Position numbers and translations under genes: made by a program. Below the pieces are notes generated by a model. The model was not told the origin of the DNA, ran no database searches, and saw only the letters and a program-made list of their open reading frames with translations. From positions 402,584 to 466,583 of the forward strand of contig MHKS01000005.1 in assembly GCA_001818495.1 (NCBI GenBank): 64,000 bases of DNA, read 5' to 3'. Every line of letters starts with the position of its first letter. Position 1 is the stretch's first letter. This document shows positions 12,977-59,130 of the stretch, one piece after another. The DNA comes from Candidatus Komeilibacteria bacterium RIFOXYD1_FULL_37_29 (GTDB lineage: Bacteria; Patescibacteriota; Patescibacteriia; UBA1558; GWA2-36-10).

Positions 12977-13987
12977 TTGATTATGGAGCAGCAAATATTT
13001 AAAAAAGAATATACTCGTGATAATGCTTTGATTATCCAAGAGGTTTGGGGTAGAGCACATATGATAGATGTTGATGCTAATTCTAATCCTTACTTACCAA
13101 CGCAAGTAATTTATATTAACGATGGAGTAGCGGAAATTTGGAATAATGAGCGCTCCATCGAGTGGCTGGAAAGAAAATTACTGGAAAAAAATCAAACTGC
13201 TCCAGATTTTTTTTGGCAAAAAATGGAGGAATATGATAGACAGCTGGTTAATTTAAAAAAATATTGGCGAAAGCATCATTTAGATTCAGTGGCCGAACTA
13301 AGAGATTTTATTGGCTTGATGCGAGCCGCTACCAGAAATTTTTTAGTTTTTTATTATTCAGCTATCAGTCAAAAAACACCAGACAAGATAAAATCTCGGG
13401 CTTTAGAAATTCGGGAGCAAGATACTTTTTACGATGATTCCAATCGGCTGATCTTTAATACTTTAGAATACGTATATCCGGAAATAAAAGGTTTGGGCAT
13501 CACTGTATTAGAAAGAGATTTGAATCAATTTCCTAGTCCCCAGGAACTAAAAGAAAGATTTCAAAATTTTGTCTATATTACGGATGAAACGGCTGAGGCT
13601 ATAAATCTTAAAAAATTTTTAAGTAAGAACAAGCAATACAAATTTATTTTTAATCAAATAGAGGACCAGACTCAGGTTTTTGGTCAAGTAGCGCATCGGG
13701 GCAAAGTAAACGGGCGAGTGAGGATTTTAAAAAGAAAAAATCAAGTAGTTGAGTTTAAACCAGGTGAAATATTAGTTTCTCCTATGACTACTCCTGATTT
13801 TGTGCCAGCTATGAAGTTGGCGGCTGCTTTTGTCACTGACGAAGGAGGAATTGGTTGTCATGCCGCTATTTTAGCTAGAGAATTAAAAGTTCCTTGTGTG
13901 ATTGGTACTAGATTCGCTACCCAAGTTTTTAAAGACGGAGATATGGTGGAGGTGGATGCTGAGAAGGGCATCGTTAAAAAGATATAA
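12977..13987 (+). CDS. Paralog P1: novel N-terminal domain fused to a PEP-utilizing enzyme mobile (phospho-His swivel) domain
   Basis: C-terminal G.V.GRVRIL...PGEILVSPMTTPDFVPAMKLAAAFVTDEGGIGCHAAILARELKVPCVIGT, the PF00391-type phosphohistidine domain; the N-terminal roughly 230 aa have no recognisable family. Confidence 0.7.
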   Translation: MIMEQQIFKKEYTRDNALIIQEVWGRAHMIDVDANSNPYLPTQVIYINDGVAEIWNNERSIEWLERKLLEKNQTAPDFFWQKMEEYDRQLVNLKKYWRKHHLDSVAELRDFIGLMRAATRNFLVFYYSAISQKTPDKIKSRALEIREQDTFYDDSNRLIFNTLEYVYPEIKGLGITVLERDLNQFPSPQELKERFQNFVYITDETAEAINLKKFLSKNKQYKFIFNQIEDQTQVFGQVAHRGKVNGRVRILKRKNQVVEFKPGEILVSPMTTPDFVPAMKLAAAFVTDEGGIGCHAAILARELKVPCVIGTRFATQVFKDGDMVEVDAEKGIVKKI

Positions 13988-13991
13988 AACC

Positions 13992-15065
13992 ATGATTGAA
14001 GAAATAAAAAAATATAAATTAACAGCTTATGGTGGAGTAAAACGTAACCTTTCTTTATTTACTTATAGTTGCATAGGGCGGGCCTATGTGCACAGTATGA
14101 TAAAATTTGCCAAGGTAAGTTATGGTCCTATAGCTGCTTACGGTAATAAAGATTATTGGTATTCTTTGTTCAATATGAAATATTTGACTGATACGGTGGC
14201 TCAAAGCATGGAACGGGATAGTAGATGGTTGGACAAAGTAAGGAAAAAATCAATAGATAATTTTAATAAGTTTAAGATAAATTTTAATAGACAAATAAAA
14301 TTTGTTGAATCAAAGCCAATGGATTTTTTGGCTTGGATCATAAAAAATTATCCTGGTTATTTTGTCATTTTAGGATTGTATAATGGACTGTGGCGTTATA
14401 AGGAATATAGTAAGGATAGTCAGCCCGCCATAGATGATGGTAGTGTTGAAGAAATAGCCAAAGAAAGAAGTCAAGTAGCAATACTTTATCCTTTGGTGGA
14501 GAAGTACTTAAAAGAGGCTATTAAATCAATGTCTTTAAATATTGGTTTGGCAGAAATAGACTATCTATTATTGACCAGAGGAGAATTGCAACGTGTAGTG
14601 GAAAAAAAACTTATAAATAAAGAATTGCAAAGCTTAATAAAGAAAAGGGGCCAGGGGTATGTGTATTTATATAATGGTAATAGAGAAACGATTGTCTCTG
14701 ACCAAGAAATTTTAAAAAAAGTTAGAGACTACGCTATCCCTAAAATAAAAAATGTAAGTATTTTGCAAGGCACAGTAGCTTATAGTGGTTTTGTTGATGG
14801 TACAGTAGTTTTTGATTTAAAAAAGATGCTAGATTATCGAAAGGCAGTTTATATTACAAACATGACTCATCCAGATGAAATACCGTGGCTTAAAAAAGTT
14901 TCAGCTATAGTAACAGATGAGGGGGGAGTATTGTCTCACGTGGCGATTATTGCAAGAGAACTTAAAATTCCTACACTTATGGGCACAAAAATTGCTACCC
15001 AAGTTTTTAAAGACGGTGATATGGTAGAGGTTGACGCTATTAAAGGAATAGTAAAGAAAATATAA
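13992..15065 (+). CDS. Paralog P2: divergent N-terminal domain plus PEP-utilizing mobile domain
   Basis: TDEGGVLSHVAIIARELKIPTLMGT. The track ORF starts at 13902 and would overlap P1; the in-frame ATG at 13992, just after the P1 stop, is the more likely start. Confidence 0.65.
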   Translation: MIEEIKKYKLTAYGGVKRNLSLFTYSCIGRAYVHSMIKFAKVSYGPIAAYGNKDYWYSLFNMKYLTDTVAQSMERDSRWLDKVRKKSIDNFNKFKINFNRQIKFVESKPMDFLAWIIKNYPGYFVILGLYNGLWRYKEYSKDSQPAIDDGSVEEIAKERSQVAILYPLVEKYLKEAIKSMSLNIGLAEIDYLLLTRGELQRVVEKKLINKELQSLIKKRGQGYVYLYNGNRETIVSDQEILKKVRDYAIPKIKNVSILQGTVAYSGFVDGTVVFDLKKMLDYRKAVYITNMTHPDEIPWLKKVSAIVTDEGGVLSHVAIIARELKIPTLMGTKIATQVFKDGDMVEVDAIKGIVKKI

Positions 15066-15075
15066 ATAAAATAAT

Positions 15076-16128
15076 ATGGCGGATACATTAGATAGTTTAA
15101 AAAAATACCACTGGAAGTCAATTTGGGCTGGGGATTGGACAATAATGCCGTGCTCTGATTGGGGTGAACATTATATTACCACGTTGAGGGTCAATGGGGA
15201 GCCATTTGTTAGGCGAGTAGTATTTATATTTGAAAATGGAAAAAGCTCATGCTGGGTGACAGAAGAGGATATTTCGGTATTTCATGACAGAATGATAAAG
15301 ATGGTGGATGATAAAATGTCCAATGTTAACATCTTGGCTAATAATCTGGTACAAGCGGCCAAAGCAGCTTTAGAATACATGGATGAGAATAAAAATTTTA
15401 TAGATTACGAAACGTATAATAGGTATCGGGAGATCATACGTACTTATTATAATGCTCATATGCCGGTAAAGTATTTTGCTGATGCTTTGACTGGTCAGCA
15501 ACTGGAAGAGTTTTTACCAATTTTACAAAAAGCCAGAGTAGAGGCTGAGTCAGTATTCACAAATACTATTTTATTTGACAAGATGATTGTCAAAAATATT
15601 GGGGAAAAAACTGGGATAGCAGAAGGGCTATTATTAAATACCACTAGAGATGAGTTATTGCATATATGGAGGAATAAAGCGCCTTTGCCAAAAGACATAA
15701 AACAACGGCATTCATTTTCAGCTTTAGTATTTGAAAATAAAGATCCAAAATTATTTGTTGGTAATAAAGCTAAAGAAATATTAGCTACTTTAGCCAGAGT
15801 AGACACTAAAGAAAATATTGTAGGTAGCACAGCTTATCCGGGTAAGATTGTGGGTAGAGTAAAAATTGTTTTAGACCCAACTAATGTTAGAGATTTTCGT
15901 CAGGGCGATGTTTTAGTTACACGTATGACTAGACCAGAATTTTTACCTTTAATGAAAATGGCTTCTGGTTTTGTGACCGATGCCGGTGGTATTTTAAGTC
16001 ATGCCGCTATCACAGCCAGAGAATTAAAAAAACCATGTATAATTGGAACTAAAGTAGCTACCCAAGTTTTTAAAGACGGTGATATGGTAGAGGTTGACGC
16101 TATTAAAGGAATAGTAAAGAAAATATAA
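15076..16128 (+). CDS. Paralog P3: divergent N-terminal domain plus PEP-utilizing mobile domain
   Basis: [25 protein letters not shown]; the last 73 nt are identical to the P2 3' end. Confidence 0.7.
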
Positions 16129-16129
16129 A

Positions 16130-17149
16130 ATGGATATAGATTTTGACTACAGTTTAGAATATGAAAGACATCAAAGGGACTATTCTATTTTAGGGACCAC
16201 TATTGTTTTTCGAGGATTATTTAAACAAAATGCTAGATTTTTTGGTGTTATCCCTAATCCTGTTTATTTTTTGGTTAAGGACGATATTTTATATCATTAT
16301 ATGGCGAAAAAAGATGGCGTCAGCCGAATGGAAAATTGGCTTAAGAAAAATGATCTGAATTCATTTAAAAAAATAGAAAAGTTTTATTCTGCTCGCTTGA
16401 AAGAATTTAATAAATTTATATTAAAACAGCCAGAAAATTTAGAACTGGCTATTAAGCAAGCCGAGGAGTTTTTTGTTGATTTTACGGAAATAATCCTTTT
16501 GGGGTATGAATTACCTCTTTATATGAAAGATAAAGCATCTTCAGAGATTATAGATTTTGCTTTAGCTAGTAGGGAAAAATATGAAAATGTCCATAAGATA
16601 AACTTTTCCATTATAGAAAAACTATTGAATCAGCTGGAAAAAAACAGAGACATACCCAAGGACACTTTAAAATATTTAACCATTGAGGAATTGGAAGATT
16701 TTTTACGGAACAATAAATTAGCAGATATTGGATATAGAAAAAAGTATATTGTAGTTAAATATGATGGTAATTATTCCTTTTTTTATGATCCTAATCTTTG
16801 GAATATTTTAAATCCTAAAGTAGCTAGAGATTTTGTCAAAGGAAATACTGCTTATAAAGGGATAGTCAGGGGGACTGTTAAGATTATTAAAAAAATTACA
16901 GAAGCAGCCGAGTTAAAAAAGGGACAAATTTTAATAACTAGTATGACTGATCCGCGCTATGTACCAGCTATGAAAAAAGCCGCAGCGATTGTCACTGACG
17001 AGGGTGGTATAACTTGTCATGCTGCTATAGTGTCTCGGGAATTAAAAATACCTTGTGTAATAGGGACAAAAGAAGCTACTCAAGTATTTAAAGACGGAGA
17101 TATGGTGGAAGTTGATGCTAATCAGGGAATAGTGAGAAAAATAAAGTAA
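16130..17149 (+). CDS. Paralog P4: divergent N-terminal domain plus PEP-utilizing mobile domain
   Basis: [25 protein letters not shown]. Confidence 0.7.
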
Positions 17150-18866: not shown

Positions 18867-19709
18867 ATGAATTTTGAAAGTCTTAATGTAGAAAAAGAAG
18901 CTAAGGGTGAAAATGTAACTGTTCATTCTGTTTTTATTCGTCATGGAGAAAAATTTCACGATATAAATAATCCAGAGACAGATCTGACCCCTAAGGGAGA
19001 AGAGGCTAGCCGTGAAATTGGAAAAAATAGGCCGGAAGTTGATGCTATTAAAGGGTATAGTAGTGATACTCAGAGAACAAAATATACTACCAGGTCCATA
19101 GTTGAGCAGTCTCCTACAGAAAACAAGTTAACTCAACGCATCAGAAATGGCTTGGGTATTAGGTATGATTCAGGTAATGAATTTACCAAGAAATTGCAAG
19201 GGATAAAAGAAGAGTTGCTGGGAAAAGGGTATGATGATTTATCAGAGGAGCAAAAAGTAGCCAGGTTAGATGAATACAACTCTGTTATAACTGATTGTTA
19301 TTTAGCTTTGGGCGATAAGCGGCCGGACCCAAATACCTATTCTCCAGTAGAAACAGCCGCTACTATGGCCAAGATATTGAATAATAATATCAGGATGGCC
19401 GATAGATTAAAAGCTAATTCAAAAGTTGATTTGGTCAATGCCACACATGATTTTAATATAGTGGCTTTCTTGAAGGAAGTTTTGGTAAGAAACATAGATG
19501 ATAAAAGAGTAGTTGGTTTTGATTCTGTTAAGGAAATAGGGGGGAGCATGGAATTTAATGGTGGTTTTGAAGTTTTAATAAAAACAGATGATGGTGGCCA
19601 TAAAACTCTAAAAATATTATTTAGGGGAGAAGAATACGAAATAGACGAGACTAGATTAACCGAGCTAGTAGAAATTGCCAAAGGTTTAAAAAAGCAGGAT
19701 AAAAAATAA
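18867..19709 (+). CDS. Histidine phosphatase superfamily protein (SixA/PGAM branch)
   Basis: FIRHGEK (RHG catalytic motif), DLTPKGEEASREIG, SSDTQRTKYTTRSI (the S..QRA..T motif). Confidence 0.6.
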   Translation: MNFESLNVEKEAKGENVTVHSVFIRHGEKFHDINNPETDLTPKGEEASREIGKNRPEVDAIKGYSSDTQRTKYTTRSIVEQSPTENKLTQRIRNGLGIRYDSGNEFTKKLQGIKEELLGKGYDDLSEEQKVARLDEYNSVITDCYLALGDKRPDPNTYSPVETAATMAKILNNNIRMADRLKANSKVDLVNATHDFNIVAFLKEVLVRNIDDKRVVGFDSVKEIGGSMEFNGGFEVLIKTDDGGHKTLKILFRGEEYEIDETRLTELVEIAKGLKKQDKK

Positions 19710-19724
19710 TATAGTAATTTATAT

Positions 19725-20015
19725 ATGTCGAAATTAAATATAAAACCATCAGCCGAAGGTAAGGTTAATAAAAAAATTGACCAAGAATCTAAATTAGATA
19801 AATTAAATAAGATCTTAGACCATATTAGACCAGCCTTAGAAAGAGATGGCGGTAATTTAGCTCTAATCAGTTATGATGCTAAAAAGGGGATAGTGGAAGT
19901 CAGCTTTCAAGGTGCTTGTGCTCATTGTTCCTTGGCCAATGTCACTTTAAAGCATTTGATTGAGGCAGAAATTAGAGATCAGATGCCAGAAGTCAAAGAA
20001 GTAAGAGCAGTTTAA
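19725..20015 (+). CDS. NifU-like (Nfu C-terminal domain) Fe-S cluster scaffold/carrier protein
   Basis: GGNLALISYD..GIVEVSFQGACAHCSLANVTLKHLIEAEI; the CxxC Nfu signature. Confidence 0.7.
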   Translation: MSKLNIKPSAEGKVNKKIDQESKLDKLNKILDHIRPALERDGGNLALISYDAKKGIVEVSFQGACAHCSLANVTLKHLIEAEIRDQMPEVKEVRAV

Positions 20016-20040
20016 TTTTCAAAATTTTAGACAAAAGGAA

Positions 20041-20078
20041 AAGCGGCGACATATTGTGTGTGTCGCCGCTTTGTTTTT
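20041..20078. terminator. Bidirectional rho-independent terminator between the convergent nifU-like gene (+) and the GC-rich phosphatase-like gene (-)
   Basis: 11-bp stem aagcggcgaca/tgtcgccgctt, loop tattgtgtg; T-runs on both strands. Confidence 0.6.
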
Positions 20079-20092
20079 AGTCCGTTGGGGGA

Positions 20093-20671
20093 CTACTCTT
20101 CGATCCAGACGGCTTTGATCGAGCCGTCGTCGTATAGGTTGAAGCGAATCGCTTCCATGGAGTTGAGGCTGCGGGCCTCGGTCATGCCGATGGACTTTGC
20201 CAACATCGGAATGGTGGGATCGTGGAAGATCCCGACACCGATCTGGCCGTCGTTCATCAGGTCGAACATCTTTCGTAGAGCACTCTGAGCGTCGCTCTTA
20301 AACTGATCGAAAACTGACGGATCCATGTGTTTGAGCACAGCCTCCATATTAGAGAGGCCGTCTTTGATGTCGGCGCGCATGGCGTCAGTGATAGTCTTCT
20401 GGAAGAATTCGGCGGAGCCGAGGCCGTCAACGGCATCGTGGATTTCCATCTCCTGGAAGGGGTCGGACATCATCCGCATGGCGGCGAGAGTCTCACTGGT
20501 GCGGATCAGCGGTCCGTGGAAACCGTGGGAGATCTTGGTGTCGGATGTGTTGTACAGTCTGTCACCGGTGTTGTAGGCCAATTCGGCCCCGGCATGAGAA
20601 ATGTGGTTTCCGCTTTTATCCTTATCGGAGTGGCGGAACAAGTCCAGAGTTTTTACAACAAACTTGGCCAT
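20093..20671 (-). CDS. Histidine-phosphatase-superfamily-like protein encoded in a GC-rich islet
   Basis: LFRHSDKD (an RHG-like RHS variant), HGPLIRTSETLAAM, C-terminal IFHDPT. Local GC is far above the flanks, and several overlapping stop-free frames on both strands are typical of high-GC DNA. Confidence 0.5.
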   Translation of the reverse strand: MAKFVVKTLDLFRHSDKDKSGNHISHAGAELAYNTGDRLYNTSDTKISHGFHGPLIRTSETLAAMRMMSDPFQEMEIHDAVDGLGSAEFFQKTITDAMRADIKDGLSNMEAVLKHMDPSVFDQFKSDAQSALRKMFDLMNDGQIGVGIFHDPTIPMLAKSIGMTEARSLNSMEAIRFNLYDDGSIKAVWIEE

Positions 20672-20722
20672 TTGTGGGCCTCCTTTGTAAAATTATGAGT
20701 GTACACACCATAAATATAGGTG

Positions 20723-20743
20723 ATCCTTGAGTTATTCAAGGAT
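20723..20743. promoter_or_regulatory. Perfect inverted repeat ATCCTTGA-N5-TCAAGGAT in the divergent promoter region
   Basis: Seen directly. It lies about 50 nt upstream of the (-) phosphatase-like gene start and about 130 nt upstream of the wHTH-containing P5 gene; candidate operator. Confidence 0.35.
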
Positions 20744-20820
20744 ATATTAGTATAGCACATTATCCTATTTTAGTCAATATTAGTTATTAGTCTATAATAT
20801 AGTTAAAAATACTATAAATA

Positions 20821-20849
20821 TTGACATTTTTACTATATAATGCTAGACT
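20821..20849 (+). promoter_or_regulatory. Candidate sigma70-type promoter of P5 (TTGACA-N17-TAGACT)
   Basis: Consensus -35 TTGACA at 20821..20826; 17-nt spacer; weak -10 TAGACT. Confidence 0.3.
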
Positions 20850-20872
20850 GCCTTATTAAATCATAAAATAAT

Positions 20873-22681
20873 ATGTTGGAAAAAATTATCAATTCTAAAA
20901 CTCGTTTGGCTATATTGGCTATGTTTTTTCAAGGCAAAGAAACAGAATTATCGGCTAGTCAGATAGTCAAAAAAAGCAAACTTGATCCAGCCAATGTCCA
21001 TAAGGAAATTAGTAATCTATTGGCTGGTAAATTTATTTTGCAAAAAGAGGCCATGGGGCGTAAATATTTTTGTGTGAATACAGGTACTGTATTTTATGAT
21101 GGTTTGGTAAAGATATTTAAAAATTATAAAATTAATCAATTTGGTGAAGAATGGTTTTCGCTAGAATCAGTACCAAATTATTATCCAATGATGGTGGCTT
21201 TTGCTTGGAATGTAAAGCGAGCTAATGATTTTTTAAAAAGTCGTGGTTTTAAAAATAAGTTTACCAAATTGTTGACTACTTATGACAACAATATTAATGA
21301 TTTGTTAATCATTAAAAAAGAATTTGATGCTTTATCCCAAGAAACTTTGGAAAAAGTTAGTTTTGATCCCAGTTGGGGACAGCAATATATTGATGATTTA
21401 TCAGCCGAGGTTGATAATTTAATTAAAGCTACTAATGATTTAGAGAAAGTAAATTTAGGAAAATTATCCAATAAAGAATTGTATGATTTATATCAGGAGT
21501 ATTATGCTGTCTATGGCCAACTTCATATTTTTCACTGGATTCAAACCGTAGCGGATTTTGGTGATAATCTTTTTTCCAAATATTTAATGAATTATTTGCG
21601 TCAGAAGATCAAAGACAGCCAATATTCTTTGGGGGAAGTATTTTCTACTTTGACGACTCCTACTAAAGATGGTGAAACGACTAAAGAATATAAAAATTTA
21701 TTAAATATTTTAGAGGACATAATTTCGGATCAAGATTTAAAAAAATATTTTAAAGATACAGAAACTCGTATTATTGTTCGCGATTTAAAAAATGTCAATA
21801 AGGTTATGGATGAAAAAATTTTAAATCACGTTACGAGGTATGGTTATCTTGGCTATGGTACAGTCGGACCTAACTGGGGTAAAGATTATTTTATTGATAT
21901 TTTAGGCTCTTTAGTCAGACAAAATACCAAGCCAGCTGAGTTGCTTGATAATTTGCAGAAAGATAAGTTAAATATTGAAGTCAAGCAACAAAAATTTATT
22001 AAACAACTGGAGATAGAGGAGAAATATCAGCAATTATTTGAAGTAGCCAGAGGTTTAGTTTTCACCAAGGGTAGCCGTAAAGAGTCCATGTTTCATAGCT
22101 ATAGTATTATAGACCATTTATTTAGAGAAATCGGTCGTCGTTATTATTTATCGGTTAATCAAGTCAGATATTTCTATCCTCATGAATTTGAAGATTTATT
22201 GCTTCATAATAAATTTAGTGCCGCTAAATTAAATGAGCGTTATAAATTTAGTTTGCAGTATTCCCTAGGTGATTATAGTCAGGATAAATTATTAGAAGAT
22301 GAGGAAGCTAGAAAATTTTTAGAAAATTTTAATATTGTCAAAGAGGAAATTGCTGATATTAAAGTAATGGAAGGAGACTGTGCTTCTCCTGGTCGGGCTC
22401 GTGGTAGCGCCAAAATTATCAATATACCCAAAGATATGAGTAAAATGGAGCAAGGTGATGTTCTGGTATCTATTGCTACTAACCCCGATTTAGTGCCAGC
22501 TATTAAGAAAGCTAGTGCTATTGTCACCGATGTCGGGGGCATTACCTGTCATGCCGCTATAGTGTCTCGAGAATTGGGTATTCCTTGTGTTATTGGTACC
22601 AAAATAGCCACTAAAGTCTTAAAAGACGGTGATGTGGTAGATGTGGACGCTACCCATGGTAAAGTTACGATTGTCCGGTAG
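20873..22681 (+). CDS. Paralog P5: N-terminal winged-helix (MarR/ArsR-like) DNA-binding domain, long central region, C-terminal PEP-utilizing mobile domain
   Basis: N-terminus TRLAILAMFFQGKETELSASQIVKKSKLDPANVHKEISNLLAGKFI (wHTH pattern); C-terminus GDCASPGRARGSAKII...[49 protein letters not shown]. Confidence 0.65.
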   Translation: MLEKIINSKTRLAILAMFFQGKETELSASQIVKKSKLDPANVHKEISNLLAGKFILQKEAMGRKYFCVNTGTVFYDGLVKIFKNYKINQFGEEWFSLESVPNYYPMMVAFAWNVKRANDFLKSRGFKNKFTKLLTTYDNNINDLLIIKKEFDALSQETLEKVSFDPSWGQQYIDDLSAEVDNLIKATNDLEKVNLGKLSNKELYDLYQEYYAVYGQLHIFHWIQTVADFGDNLFSKYLMNYLRQKIKDSQYSLGEVFSTLTTPTKDGETTKEYKNLLNILEDIISDQDLKKYFKDTETRIIVRDLKNVNKVMDEKILNHVTRYGYLGYGTVGPNWGKDYFIDILGSLVRQNTKPAELLDNLQKDKLNIEVKQQKFIKQLEIEEKYQQLFEVARGLVFTKGSRKESMFHSYSIIDHLFREIGRRYYLSVNQVRYFYPHEFEDLLLHNKFSAAKLNERYKFSLQYSLGDYSQDKLLEDEEARKFLENFNIVKEEIADIKVMEGDCASPGRARGSAKIINIPKDMSKMEQGDVLVSIATNPDLVPAIKKASAIVTDVGGITCHAAIVSRELGIPCVIGTKIATKVLKDGDVVDVDATHGKVTIVR

Positions 22682-22747
22682 ACAAGCAGTCTATTGGACT
22701 TTTTGTTTTAGGCATACTAAAATTAAGATAAATATTACTTAATTACT

Positions 22748-23686
22748 ATGGAATTAATTAGAGATTTTAAAAAATTGGACAAACACGCTGTTGCTTTGGC
22801 TGGCGGAAAAGGGGCCTCTCTGGGCGAGATGACCAAAGCCGGTATTCCGGTGCCACCGGGATTTGTAGTGTTATCAGCTGCTTTTGAAAAATTTTTAGAG
22901 GAAACTGATCTAAATGTTGAAATTGATGCTGTTATAAAAACAGTCAAACACGAAGATATAAATCTAGTAGAGCAGGCCTCGGTTAAAATCAGGGATTTAA
23001 TCAGTGACGCCCAGATGCCGGACGATATAGCCAAAGAAATAAAAGCAGAGTTTAAAAAAATGGATGCTAAATATGTAGCGGTGCGTTCTTCAGCCACTGC
23101 TGAGGACTCTTCAGTAGCTTCTTGGGCCGGAGAATTAGAATCATATCTTAATACCACTGAAAAAGATTTATTAGATAAAGTCAAAAAATGTTGGTCTTCA
23201 CTTTTTACACCGCGGGCTATTTTTTATCGTTTTGAAAAAAAACTTCAAGATGCCAAAGTTTCTGTAGCCGTAGTAGTGCAGAAAATGGTGCAATCAGAAG
23301 TATCGGGGATTACTTTTACAGTTCATCCGGTCACCGAAGACAGAGACCAGATGGTGATTGAGGCAGGTTGGGGACTAGGAGAGGCTATTGTTTCCGGCAT
23401 GGTGACACCTGATGCTTATGTGATTGATAAAAAAGATTTCTCTATTATGGATATAAATATTGCTGATCAAGCTAAAAAAATTATAAAAACTCCCAAGGGT
23501 AATCAATTTGTAGAAGTAGAGCATAATAAAAGAGAAGAACAAAAATTGGGCGGTGTTCAGATTATAGAGCTGGCCAAAATTTGTGCTGGCATTGAAAAAC
23601 ATTATGGCTTTCCCTGTGATATTGAGTGGGCTTATGAAAAGGGTGATTTTTATATAGTCCAGTCTCGGCCGATTACTACTTTATAA
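22748..23686 (+). CDS. Stand-alone PEP synthase/pyruvate phosphate dikinase N-terminal ATP-binding (ATP-grasp) domain protein
   Basis: VALAGGKGASLGEMTKAGIPVPPGFVV and VAVRSSATAEDSSVASWAGELESYLN, the hallmark PPDK_N (PF01326) motifs. 312 aa with no His or TIM-barrel domain. Confidence 0.75.
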   Translation: MELIRDFKKLDKHAVALAGGKGASLGEMTKAGIPVPPGFVVLSAAFEKFLEETDLNVEIDAVIKTVKHEDINLVEQASVKIRDLISDAQMPDDIAKEIKAEFKKMDAKYVAVRSSATAEDSSVASWAGELESYLNTTEKDLLDKVKKCWSSLFTPRAIFYRFEKKLQDAKVSVAVVVQKMVQSEVSGITFTVHPVTEDRDQMVIEAGWGLGEAIVSGMVTPDAYVIDKKDFSIMDINIADQAKKIIKTPKGNQFVEVEHNKREEQKLGGVQIIELAKICAGIEKHYGFPCDIEWAYEKGDFYIVQSRPITTL

Positions 23687-23704
23687 ATTTTATACAAAAG
23701 AAAA

Positions 23705-23735
23705 AAGCCCTGTGTTTAGACAGGACTTTTTTTAT
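23705..23735. terminator. Bidirectional terminator between convergent genes
   Basis: aaaaaagccctgtgtttagacaggacttttttt; hairpin flanked by A-run and T-run. Confidence 0.55.
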
Positions 23736-23754
23736 TCGCGGTGTTGGCGAATTT

Positions 23755-24246
23755 TTAGGCTTCAGTTTCGCCAAGTTGTTCGAGAATCGAACAACCGAGT
23801 TCATCGTTGTCATCGATGGTAATCTCTACGACCGAGCCACTTTTGGCAACTTCGATACCCAGAGATTTGGCGAAAGGTCGGCCGGTGCAGAGCACGGCCT
23901 GATCAGGCAGAGAGCGGAGAAAGTTGTGGATGGCCGGAGCCATGTCCTGGATGCCGGTGTATTGCTCGTACCAGCAGGCGGTGCCGTCGGCAAATATGAT
24001 GGTCGGATTGCCGTCGATGGTATCCATCGATGTGGCGTCTCCTAAGAGGAGAGTAGAGCGGGTCATTTCCAGACCTAATGTGGCGGCAACGTGCCGATGT
24101 CGGCGACCAGTACCACATATGATGGCAGAAGGGTTGTCAGGGAGTAAGTCCTTTAGAGACTCAATTTGATTTACTCCGGAAGGAGTCATAGTTGGGTCAG
24201 CACCTTCGTGCTTGTCGCCGTGTAAAACCGCATAAATCGTCTTCAT
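23755..24246 (-). CDS. SixA-like phosphohistidine phosphatase-family protein in a GC-rich islet, with the catalytic Arg replaced (LHG instead of RHG)
   Basis: IYAVLHGDKHEG...MTPSGVNQIESL...GTGRRHRHVAATL aligns to the SixA N-terminal pattern (RHG...LT..G..Q...S...RA..TA). High local GC with overlapping stop-free frames. Confidence 0.45.
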   Translation of the reverse strand: MKTIYAVLHGDKHEGADPTMTPSGVNQIESLKDLLPDNPSAIICGTGRRHRHVAATLGLEMTRSTLLLGDATSMDTIDGNPTIIFADGTACWYEQYTGIQDMAPAIHNFLRSLPDQAVLCTGRPFAKSLGIEVAKSGSVVEITIDDNDELGCSILEQLGETEA

Positions 24247-24450
24247 TTTGTGGCCTCTTCCTTATTTTTAGAATTGTAGTGTACTTGATTGTAATATTCT
24301 ATTATAACATGCTTTAGCTATTTTGTCAATGTGCGAACCGATTTATCTATTTAGGTCGGGGGCGGTCTTTTTTTATTGACATTTTTGTGTAAAACTGATG
24401 AAATATTGGGTAGATTTTTTGTAAATAATATGCTAAAATAAAGACACAAT

Positions 24451-24810
24451 ATGTCTATTATCCGCACCAGCCGAGTATTATATCAAGATAAATTGGCCTT
24501 TTGGTTGATTAATTTTTCAATTTTATCCATAGTATCCACCTGGGCGCTTTTTTTATTTAAAAGAGTAGAGCGTGATCCATTGGCCGTACTGCACTATAAT
24601 ATCTACGCTGGCATAGACGCTTTGGGGTCGTGGCAATGGCTTTATCTATTACCAGCCATTTTTTTGTTGATAGCGGCTTTAGATTTTTGGTTGGCTGTTT
24701 TATTGTGGACTAAGGCTAGAGTACTGAGCTATTTTTTATTAGCCACCATTTTGATTATGAATTTTTTTATGTCTTTATTTATCTATAATATATTAAATTA
24801 TAATTCCTAA
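24451..24810 (+). CDS. Hypothetical small membrane protein
   Basis: 119 aa with three hydrophobic segments; immediately upstream of mraY. Confidence 0.35.
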   Translation: MSIIRTSRVLYQDKLAFWLINFSILSIVSTWALFLFKRVERDPLAVLHYNIYAGIDALGSWQWLYLLPAIFLLIAALDFWLAVLLWTKARVLSYFLLATILIMNFFMSLFIYNILNYNS

Positions 24811-58851: not shown

Positions 58852-59130
58852 ATGCTGGAAAGAAAGCTTCTAGTGCCGGCCAATGTTTTGCAGCTTAAGA
58901 TTAAGCTACCTAATTGCGATGGAGTGCCGGCTACTGGCCCTAAGTGGGTGGAACTCACAGAGGGTTGGGAAAAGGAATTTCCTGCTATTGCTGGCGGGCC
59001 GCTTACGGTTAAAGTAATCAAGGTTGGCCCTTATCGTAAGAAAGACGGGGCCAGAAAATGGATCATCATCCAGTTTGATGGGCCTACCACCAAAGAGGTG
59101 GCCCAAGAAGCGGTTTTAGTCTGTTCCTGA
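58852..59130 (+). CDS. Hypothetical small protein encoded in a GC-rich islet
   Basis: 92 aa; GC-richer than the flanks; RBS gagagg precedes the ATG; a promoter-like TTGACA-N17-TAGATT lies about 80 nt upstream. Confidence 0.4.
   Translation: MLERKLLVPANVLQLKIKLPNCDGVPATGPKWVELTEGWEKEFPAIAGGPLTVKVIKVGPYRKKDGARKWIIIQFDGPTTKEVAQEAVLVCS

Follow-up and report, generated by a model that had tools for sequence, protein, structure and literature searches.

Branch 1 of the histidine phosphatase superfamily (PF00300) includes cofactor-dependent phosphoglycerate mutase (PGAM), PhoE, CobC/TTHB049, Rv3214, RosC, fructose-2,6-bisphosphatase, and SixA, the phosphohistidine phosphatase of ArcB HPt/NPr in E. 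coli, which has a minimal core of about 160 amino acids (aa). Pseudo-enzymes and divergent members of the superfamily include the HPD domain of TFIIIC tau55 and the weakly active Sts-2. The two-component dikinases HpeHI, CreHI, and PpsAB (phenylphosphate synthase), composed of proteins of about 40 kDa and 71 kDa, are homologous to rifampin phosphotransferase but split into two proteins; their phosphorylated products lose the phosphate at a later stage, as in the Hpe pathway (PMC12167813). Here we describe three genes, designated A, B, and C, in a stretch of 64,000 nucleotides (nt) of Candidatus Komeilibacteria bacterium RIFOXYD1_FULL_37_29 (contig MHKS01000005.1, positions 402,584 to 466,583; hereafter the window), whose products belong to branch 1 and are encoded next to genes for one PPDK_N ATP-grasp protein and five swivel phosphohistidine (phospho-His) proteins (Table 1). 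We propose, with a probability of about one half, that A, B, and C work together with these proteins, which would form a multi-paralogue two-component dikinase system.

The functional link of A, B, and C with phospho-His carriers is well supported by conserved gene neighborhoods. Five carriers had been proposed to lie near the three genes, and the window indeed encodes five PF00391 proteins, as well as one PF01326 protein. In related Patescibacteria contigs the gene order mraY-hyp119-[C, opposite]-PPDK_N-602-aa swivel-[B, opposite]-...-nifU-A-rmlA-rmlD recurs, and at least six related genomes have B and C at this position and in this orientation. Genes with PF00391 or PF01326 stand beside the relatives of B or C in the window and at the related loci L001, L002, L004-L007, and L014-L019; of these, L006, L007, and L014-L019 stem from unrelated metagenomes and hold more distant relatives of C (32-47% identity). 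Such adjacency to swivel or ATP-grasp genes was found at every locus with readable neighbors. The homologues of A with 42-46% identity show the same tendency, being located inside operons with five (L021) or eight (L023) PF00391 paralogues, or beside a single one (L022). Thus the association suggested for the window is kept at each informative locus that was examined, whether it carries relatives of A, B, or C.

The swivel and ATP-grasp genes are similar in layout to the described two-component dikinases: a separate ATP-grasp protein of ~35-40 kDa (the 312-aa PPDK_N protein, presumed to be the ATP-binding component) is encoded next to a swivel partner of ~70 kDa (the adjacent 602-aa protein). 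The latter consists of an N-terminal segment resembling a winged helix-turn-helix, a ~490-aa domain of no known kind, and a swivel domain with its catalytic His in the TDxGGxxCHAAI motif; in a phmmer search against the PDB only residues 491-598 gave matches, to PEP synthase or RPH chains. Each of the four tandem paralogues combines a variable N-terminal domain with a C-terminal swivel phospho-His domain. All five swivel proteins keep the catalytic His of TDxGGxx[CS]H[AV]AI, and a PEP/pyruvate-binding domain was found in none of them. Despite their divergent N-terminal domains, the four tandem paralogues end in a nearly identical 23-aa tail, which suggests gene conversion or a common docking partner; such tails are expected if these proteins dock on shared partners. 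In contrast to the known two-component dikinases, there is one ATP-grasp gene per five swivel paralogues, four of which are only 336-387 aa long, the N-terminal domains have no sequence match to the rifampin-binding domain, and the companion phosphatases are of the PGAM fold. The genomic context is also different: in this tiny-genome bacterium of the Candidate Phyla Radiation (CPR) it is that of the cell envelope (rml, glycosyltransferases, mur/dcw), not of aromatic catabolism.

All three companion proteins are members of branch 1, very divergent ones, with B and C recognizable at the level of fold only. Their open reading frames (ORFs) and the motifs RHG in A, RHS in B, and LHG in C were found at exactly the coordinates and on the strands given in the original prediction. 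The assignment to the superfamily was upheld by different evidence for A than for the other two. Protein A scores above the PF00300 threshold (27.2 bits with a cut-off of 21.7), though over residues 22-93 only, that is, its N-terminal half; most of the 47 clusters of its family have a precomputed PF00300 match, and, whereas single-sequence phmmer with A against the PDB gave no match, the family profile matched 32 chains, all of them from the superfamily or PGAM-like, with the best match to 3r7a at 3.2e-7. Proteins B and C had no PF00300 match at E ≤ 1, and their membership follows from AlphaFold models and Foldseek comparison only. Among their relatives PF00300 was matched by one of eight for B (2.9e-5) and, weakly, by 2/11 and 7/80 for C (best 3.5e-4). 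The models are confident, with a predicted local distance difference test score of 89 and a predicted template-modeling (TM) score of 0.87 for B, and 93 and 0.88 for C, and the top 50 Foldseek matches of either model in the PDB are exclusively histidine phosphatases with E from 1e-5 to 2.5e-8. For B the best match is again 3r7a (2.5e-8), followed by RosC, CobC, PhoE, TIGAR, and PGAM5; for C the list contains TTHB049 at 3e-7, then Rv3214, fructose-2,6-bisphosphatase, and Rv2419c. Single-sequence or small-profile searches of the PDB with B and C were marginal (3eoz at 0.018 and 2a6p at 0.93). The alpha/beta fold, the nucleophile His ending strand 1, and the Arg starting the helix after strand 2 are shared with the known branch-1 enzymes. 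Chance could account for a three-letter motif alone; here the evidence from fold and family excludes it. We also considered B and C as mutual paralogues and rejected this, as BLASTP gave E 0.1 and hhalign a C-terminal match of 29 columns with a probability of 26%; judging by their sequences, no recent duplication lies behind the two genes.

In the alignments, the complete Arg-His...Arg...His set, with the acidic residue, is present in A and B alike, and thus B retains the whole catalytic inventory. In the alignment of 22 sequences of the A family, R25, H26, G27, R70, and H194 are invariant; in that of eight sequences of the B family, H14, R57, E88, and H150 are invariant, and R13 is present in seven, the exception having an aberrant N-terminus. 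The third motif position of B (S15) is S, T, or A across the family and not Gly. Therefore, the altered catalytic motif ascribed to B is real as a sequence, RH[S/T/A], but it is a trivial and mild variant, with the Arg and both His residues kept. The C-terminal His reported for B corresponds to H150, situated in the model directly after strand 144-149, and A has its own such residue, H194. A downstream motif S/G-x-x-x-R-x-x-x-T had been described for all three proteins; it holds for A (S66-D-T-Q-R70-T-K-Y-T74) and B (G53-P-L-I-R57-T-S-E-T61) but not for C, where the last position is V. Of the three, only A and B share with the known enzymes the Arg of the RHG motif and the C-terminal His. They differ from these enzymes in that A has a large insertion of roughly 90 aa (about residues 94-185) and a C-terminal extension, and B, with its RH[S/T/A] motif, is below Pfam detection. 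In the B model a helical cap insertion (~residues 87-137) occupies the cap site of the small-molecule enzymes. The B family is small, comprising eight homologue clusters, all from Patescibacteria-type contexts, and just two of the 185,579 species genomes contained it. At L001 the A homologue (15887-16656) is called as two ORFs of 88 aa and 171 aa, which may be due to a frameshift or to an error of assembly, or may mean that it is a pseudogene.

The original prediction attributed A, B, and C to the SixA/PGAM branch; as SixA-type enzymes they would be phosphohistidine-protein phosphatases discharging the phospho-His carrier domains. The conserved association with swivel phospho-His proteins fits this view, and so does the cap-less core of C, which at 163 aa is comparable in size to SixA; with swivel-His proteins encoded nearby, a protein bearing phospho-His is a plausible target. 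In addition, a putative SixA, 4hbz, is among the weak matches of the C-family profile (E 0.062). However, no signal specific to SixA was found: no family named after SixA was among the NCBIfam matches of A, B, and C at E ≤ 1, comparison by hhalign of the C family with an E. coli SixA sequence entered by hand gave a probability of 0.2%, and the nearest structures are those of small-molecule phosphatases and mutases (TTHB049/CobC, Rv3214, PhoE, RosC, 3r7a). Moreover, C lacks both the RHG motif and the second His (SHxP) of SixA, and A and B exceed SixA in size and carry cap insertions typical of small-molecule enzymes. We consider it unlikely that the three proteins are of the SixA type, and the label itself is not supported.

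Protein C represents a sizeable family that is named by neither Pfam-A nor NCBIfam. A HMMER search with the C profile among 1.84 billion representatives yielded 349 clusters (50% identity) at E ≤ 1e-3, 211 of them at E ≤ 1e-10. The family signature is [T/L]-H-G ... G-T-G-[R/K]-R-H ... G-R-P, represented in C by L8-H9-G10, G45-T-G-R48-R49-H50 (followed by R-H-V53), and C120-T-G122-R123-P124. In the alignment of 155 members, position 8 is T in 117 sequences, L in 11, I in four, and never R, so that replacement of the arginine, as noted originally, is both real and family-wide. H9 is present in 123 of 143 sequences, R49 in 151 of 155, and H50 in 115; G45 and G47 are nearly universal, position 48 is mostly R or K, and G122, R123, and P124 are found in 127, 123, and 93 sequences, respectively. 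The positions equivalent to RHG are those proposed before, since hhalign of the 155-sequence profile with the A family aligns T/L8 with R25, and the following H9 with H26 (E 4e-5 at a probability of 70%). In the HMMER alignment to Rv3214, R49 of C falls on the canonical SPxxR arginine, and in the model G122 comes right after strand 118-121, in the same register as H150 after strand 144-149 in B. As the alignments and model place these residues, C keeps the nucleophile His9 and the second Arg (R49) and has lost the RHG Arg and also the second His, with Gly at its position. Thus C departs from the canonical site further than was originally stated. At the same time it has gained conserved basic residues outside the canonical set, R/K48, H50, and R123.

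This pattern bears on another reading of C, as a catalytically dead pseudo-phosphatase acting only as a binder or regulator of dikinase components. Two of the four canonical pocket residues are indeed gone, the RHG Arg being replaced by Leu or Thr and the second His by Gly, and the nucleophile His is Cys in six representatives and absent in a few others. On the other hand, H9, R49, G45, G47, R123, H50, and R/K48 are strongly conserved, whereas a degenerate site is expected to drift. With a mean column identity of 26% in the family, the conservation of the basic residues favors a rewired working site over decay, and the phosphate pocket of C is best read as rebuilt from other positions. The tau55 HPD domain and Sts-2 have likewise lost canonical catalytic residues while keeping the PGAM fold; in contrast to them, the substitutions in C are fixed family-wide and accompanied by new strictly conserved basic residues, which points to rewiring. 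We therefore regard a dead or degenerate C as quite improbable.

The picture we prefer, of A, B, and C as partners of a split dikinase, can be outlined as follows. By analogy with the described dikinases, the ATP-grasp protein would use ATP to phosphorylate the swivel His, and the phosphate would then pass from the swivel domain to a substrate, presumably bound by one of the five variable N-terminal domains. The substrates phosphorylated by these dikinase modules may be envelope-related, given the gene context. A and B, with their complete sites and cap insertions, would most likely be active phosphomonoesterases that remove the phosphate installed by the dikinase. C, having no cap and thus an exposed site, would most likely act on protein phospho-His, namely that of the swivel domain; it would either hydrolyze this phosphate or accept it. 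Several considerations weigh against this scheme. The similarity to the dikinases is one of domain architecture, and sequence comparison gave no match between the N-terminal domains of these swivel proteins and a substrate-binding domain of solved structure. B and C match no Pfam or NCBIfam family at E ≤ 1, their Foldseek TM-scores are modest (about 0.55-0.68), as for remote members of the superfamily, and the C-family profile matches solved histidine phosphatases only marginally (2a6p at 0.02, 4hbz at 0.062). The gene neighborhood does not distinguish between hydrolysis of product phosphates, hydrolysis of phospho-His, and acceptance of the phosphate. R48, H50, and R123 would have to cluster in space around H9, and the chemistry and substrates proposed for A, B, and C go beyond the observed fold, motif positions, family-wide conservation, and gene neighborhood.

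A third family of opposite-strand GC-rich genes, here called D (161-224 aa), has the histidine-phosphatase-like motifs QRH[WF], SPEPRA, and SHGG, which are degenerate (QRSF, CQEG) in some copies. Its copies were observed beside B or C at L002 (11286-11771), L004 (12289-12951), L005 (3351-3896), and L007 (963-1637); D takes the same slot in some genomes and is absent from the window. At L014 (935-2345), one of the distant loci, a gene of an AbiEii-type toxin separates the C-family gene from that of the swivel protein.

The original prediction missed an extreme feature of B and C, their GC-richness. With GC content measured in 200-nt windows (mean over the whole window 35.4%, standard deviation [sd] 5.3), the only large GC islands in the 64 kb are those of B and C. 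The GC content of third codon positions (GC3) in the 61 other ORFs of the window has a mean of 0.302 with sd 0.034 and a maximum of 0.383, against which B has a z-score of +12.9 and C of +7.4, and A is compositionally native. Codons rare for the genome make up 25-33% of B and C as compared with 9-13% of native genes, including other minus-strand genes. The syntenic orthologues, residing in genomes of 33-37% GC, show the same: the GC content is 0.55-0.64 for B, with GC3 up to 0.90 (L003), and 0.52-0.56 for C, and in the more distant C genes the GC content is 8-25 points above that of the flanks at nine of nine metagenomic loci. In all, B, C, and their orthologues (L001-L007, L012-L020) are 15-30 GC points above their own genomes.

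A natural explanation of such islands would be recent horizontal transfer of B and C from a GC-rich donor, with un-ameliorated composition and no functional relation to the neighbors. It would account for 53-54% GC on a background of 35% with sharp boundaries, for the high share of rare codons, and for the genes being monocistronic and opposite in orientation to their neighbors. Yet B and C hold the same place and orientation in at least six related genomes, their promoter regions share the AT-richness of the host, and the PF00391 neighborhood persists down to 32-40% identity. No relatives from GC-rich organisms, plasmids, or viruses were found among 5.8 billion proteins and 185,579 genomes and in PLSDB and IMG/VR; phage or plasmid origin, considered separately, likewise found no relatives in the latter two databases. 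The orthologues are only 45-78% identical, and still have GC3 of 0.55-0.90 with four-fold sites near saturation. At such sites the flanking genes are 0.37-0.59 identical versus 0.27-0.37 expected from composition, and B and C are strongly diverged (0.29-0.64 identical), the comparison of C with its L004 counterpart being fully saturated. Since GC-richness persists at near-saturated synonymous sites, a directional force keeps B and C GC-rich, and recent transfer seems very improbable.

The anomaly coincides with the transcribed unit, as follows from the limits seen in a meta-profile of 23 genes: GC content is 24-32% upstream of the start, 50-59% over the coding sequence to about 60 nt past the stop (lower in the first 30 nt of the coding sequence), and 24-37% further downstream. 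All these genes are opposite in orientation to their neighbors and have their own promoter and terminator. The transcripts are also unusually folded. When synonymous codons were shuffled with the protein sequence and codon usage fixed, the folding z-score was -3.0 for the B mRNA (1 of 150 shuffles as stable) and -4.2 for that of C (0 of 150). For 23 B, C, and D genes the mean z-score was -3.0, with 13 at or below -3, as compared with -0.47 and none at or below -3 for 17 control genes, five of which have 45-56% GC (Mann-Whitney p = 7e-5). The sense z-score is more negative than the antisense one in 10 of 12 genes, and this leans toward an effect at the RNA level. A conserved RNA structure in C orthologues was considered and rejected, as RNAalifold gave no supported common structure for them (-30.6 kcal/mol with a covariation term of +1.18), the lone long-range helix pairing the codons of two conserved protein motifs. 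Long perfect hairpins or inverted repeats were not found inside the coding sequences, and the signal looks like general foldedness with no discrete conserved element. Candidate causes are selection for mRNAs that are stable or translated slowly, shielding against antisense transcription that reads through from the co-directional operons at the flanks, and GC-biased conversion at a recombination hot spot. To our knowledge, no such regime of composition and RNA structure has been described for bacterial protein-coding genes.

Two other GC-rich genes were observed. At L006 (3394-4185) a creatininase-family gene stands in opposite orientation beside PPDK_N, with 51% GC versus ~33-37% in its flanks and a shuffle z-score of -2.1, so that the GC effect may not be restricted to genes of the histidine-phosphatase fold. 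A smaller patch in the window at 58852-59130 (plus strand; about 50% GC, peak 53%) contains a 92-aa ORF (MLERKLLVPANVLQLKIKLPNCDGVP...) with its own Shine-Dalgarno (SD) sequence, a promoter-like TTGACA...TATAAT upstream, and a hairpin downstream.

The strongly negative folding z-scores, together with ORFs that are open on both strands of the islands, could also mean that the islands are genes of non-coding structured RNAs and the B and C ORFs are artifacts of stop-poor GC-rich sequence. We find this barely credible. Hidden RNA genes were looked for with Rfam, at the gathering threshold on the whole window and at E ≤ 1 on 19.7-24.5 kb, and with ARAGORN, and only noise was obtained, with no tRNA; RNAalifold, as said above, lacks covariation support. 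Conversely, B and C have features of protein-coding genes. Both ORFs start with ATG correctly spaced from a strong SD sequence (AAGGAGG, GGAAGAGG) and end in hairpin terminators; substitutions between orthologues follow the order pos3 > pos1 > pos2 of codon positions in the proposed frame; catalytic-type residues are conserved in both protein families; and confident AlphaFold models match a known fold. B and C are thus real coding genes, annotated as "hypothetical proteins" in Candidatus Komeilibacteria bacterium RIFOXYC1_FULL_37_11, a CPR/Patescibacteria genome.

Gene A is in one operon with rmlD, rmlA, and nifU, and B and C are each monocistronic. C and the hyp119-mraY operon are divergent, and the AT-rich spacer that separates them contains the promoter of C; the promoter-like site upstream of B is also in an AT-rich spacer (27-29% GC). 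The hairpin between the convergent nifU and B is probably a bidirectional terminator.

Table 1. Coordinates of A, B, C and associated features in the 64,000-nt window
Feature	Positions	Strand	Description
Gene A	18867..19709	+	280 aa; His_Phos_1 protein; VFIRHGEK; GC 0.36, GC3 0.28
Gene B	20093..20671	-	192 aa; PGAM fold; LFRHSDKD; GC 0.54, GC3 0.74
Gene C	23755..24246	-	163 aa; minimal-core PGAM fold; AVLHGDKHEG; GC 0.53, GC3 0.55
PPDK_N ATP-grasp protein, stand-alone	22748..23686	+	312 aa; PF01326 at 1.5e-101
602-aa swivel protein	20873..22681	+	PF00391 at 4.6e-24; C-terminal swivel phospho-His domain
Four tandem swivel paralogues	12977..17149 (12977..13987, 13902..15065, 15076..16128, 16130..17149)	+	PF00391 at 1e-21 to 1e-27 each
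GC-rich island 1	19977..20716		B coding sequence and terminator; peak 60% GC
GC-rich island 2	23697..24275		C coding sequence and terminator; peak 59.5% GC
Promoter of C	24301..24329	-	TTGACA-17 nt-TATAAT, extended -10 TG; 12/12 consensus match
Promoter-like site upstream of B	20749..20777	-	TTGACT-17 nt-TATACT with TG; 10/12 match
GC-rich hairpin, convergent nifU/B	20040..20072		15-bp stem then T-run; A-run and T-run flank the stem
Hairpin, convergent PPDK_N/C; bidirectional terminator	23701..23732		Terminator-like calls on both strands

Other neighbors are genes of glycosyltransferases, rmlB/rmlD/rmlA, a HIT protein, and nifU, followed downstream by the cluster mraY-murD-ftsW-murG-murC-murB, as read from Pfam tags on the syntenic L001 genes. 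A conserved 119-aa membrane protein without Pfam match is encoded at 24451-24810 (plus strand), with its stop overlapping the mraY start, and has the same position in L001-L004 and L012. The first two ORFs of the tandem swivel paralogues overlap by 86 nt, and the second probably starts further downstream. Residues 3-83 of the 602-aa swivel protein (20873-21120) match the winged-helix-like PADLOC profile PDC-M05A at 8.6e-7 and, weakly, Pfam HTH_20; a DNA-binding-type domain joined to a swivel phospho-His protein is unusual. A, B, and C themselves had no match in PADLOC, and a role of these three in a defense system was on this ground rejected. A literature search on the association of histidine phosphatases with split dikinases, or on GC-rich genes in Patescibacteria, found nothing relevant.

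What is new here combines a rewired and so far unnamed subfamily within a familiar superfamily, its conserved pairing with split-dikinase arrays, and a long-kept signature of GC-rich genes and structured mRNAs. A bolder version can be put forward only tentatively and is rather doubtful as a whole: that the C type is a new branch of the superfamily with migrated catalytic basic residues, serving as a dedicated phosphatase or acceptor of swivel phospho-His in the split-dikinase arrays of CPR bacteria, and that B, C, and D are kept GC-rich and, as mRNAs, hyper-structured by long-lasting gene-specific selection in genomes that are AT-rich.

If the proposed partnership is true, it would provide a function-linked context for many unannotated CPR proteins. 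Arrays of variable domains joined to swivel domains, a shared ATP-grasp protein, and PGAM-fold partners would then constitute an undescribed modular system of phosphorylation and dephosphorylation, which sits among the cell-envelope genes of organisms with poorly understood metabolism. As a natural experiment, the C family would show rewiring of the PGAM-fold active site, with two canonical residues lost and conserved Arg and His residues gained. Finally, with the composition of B and C and their excess mRNA structure, it would become possible to test directly whether bacterial genes are under gene-specific selection for nucleotide composition.

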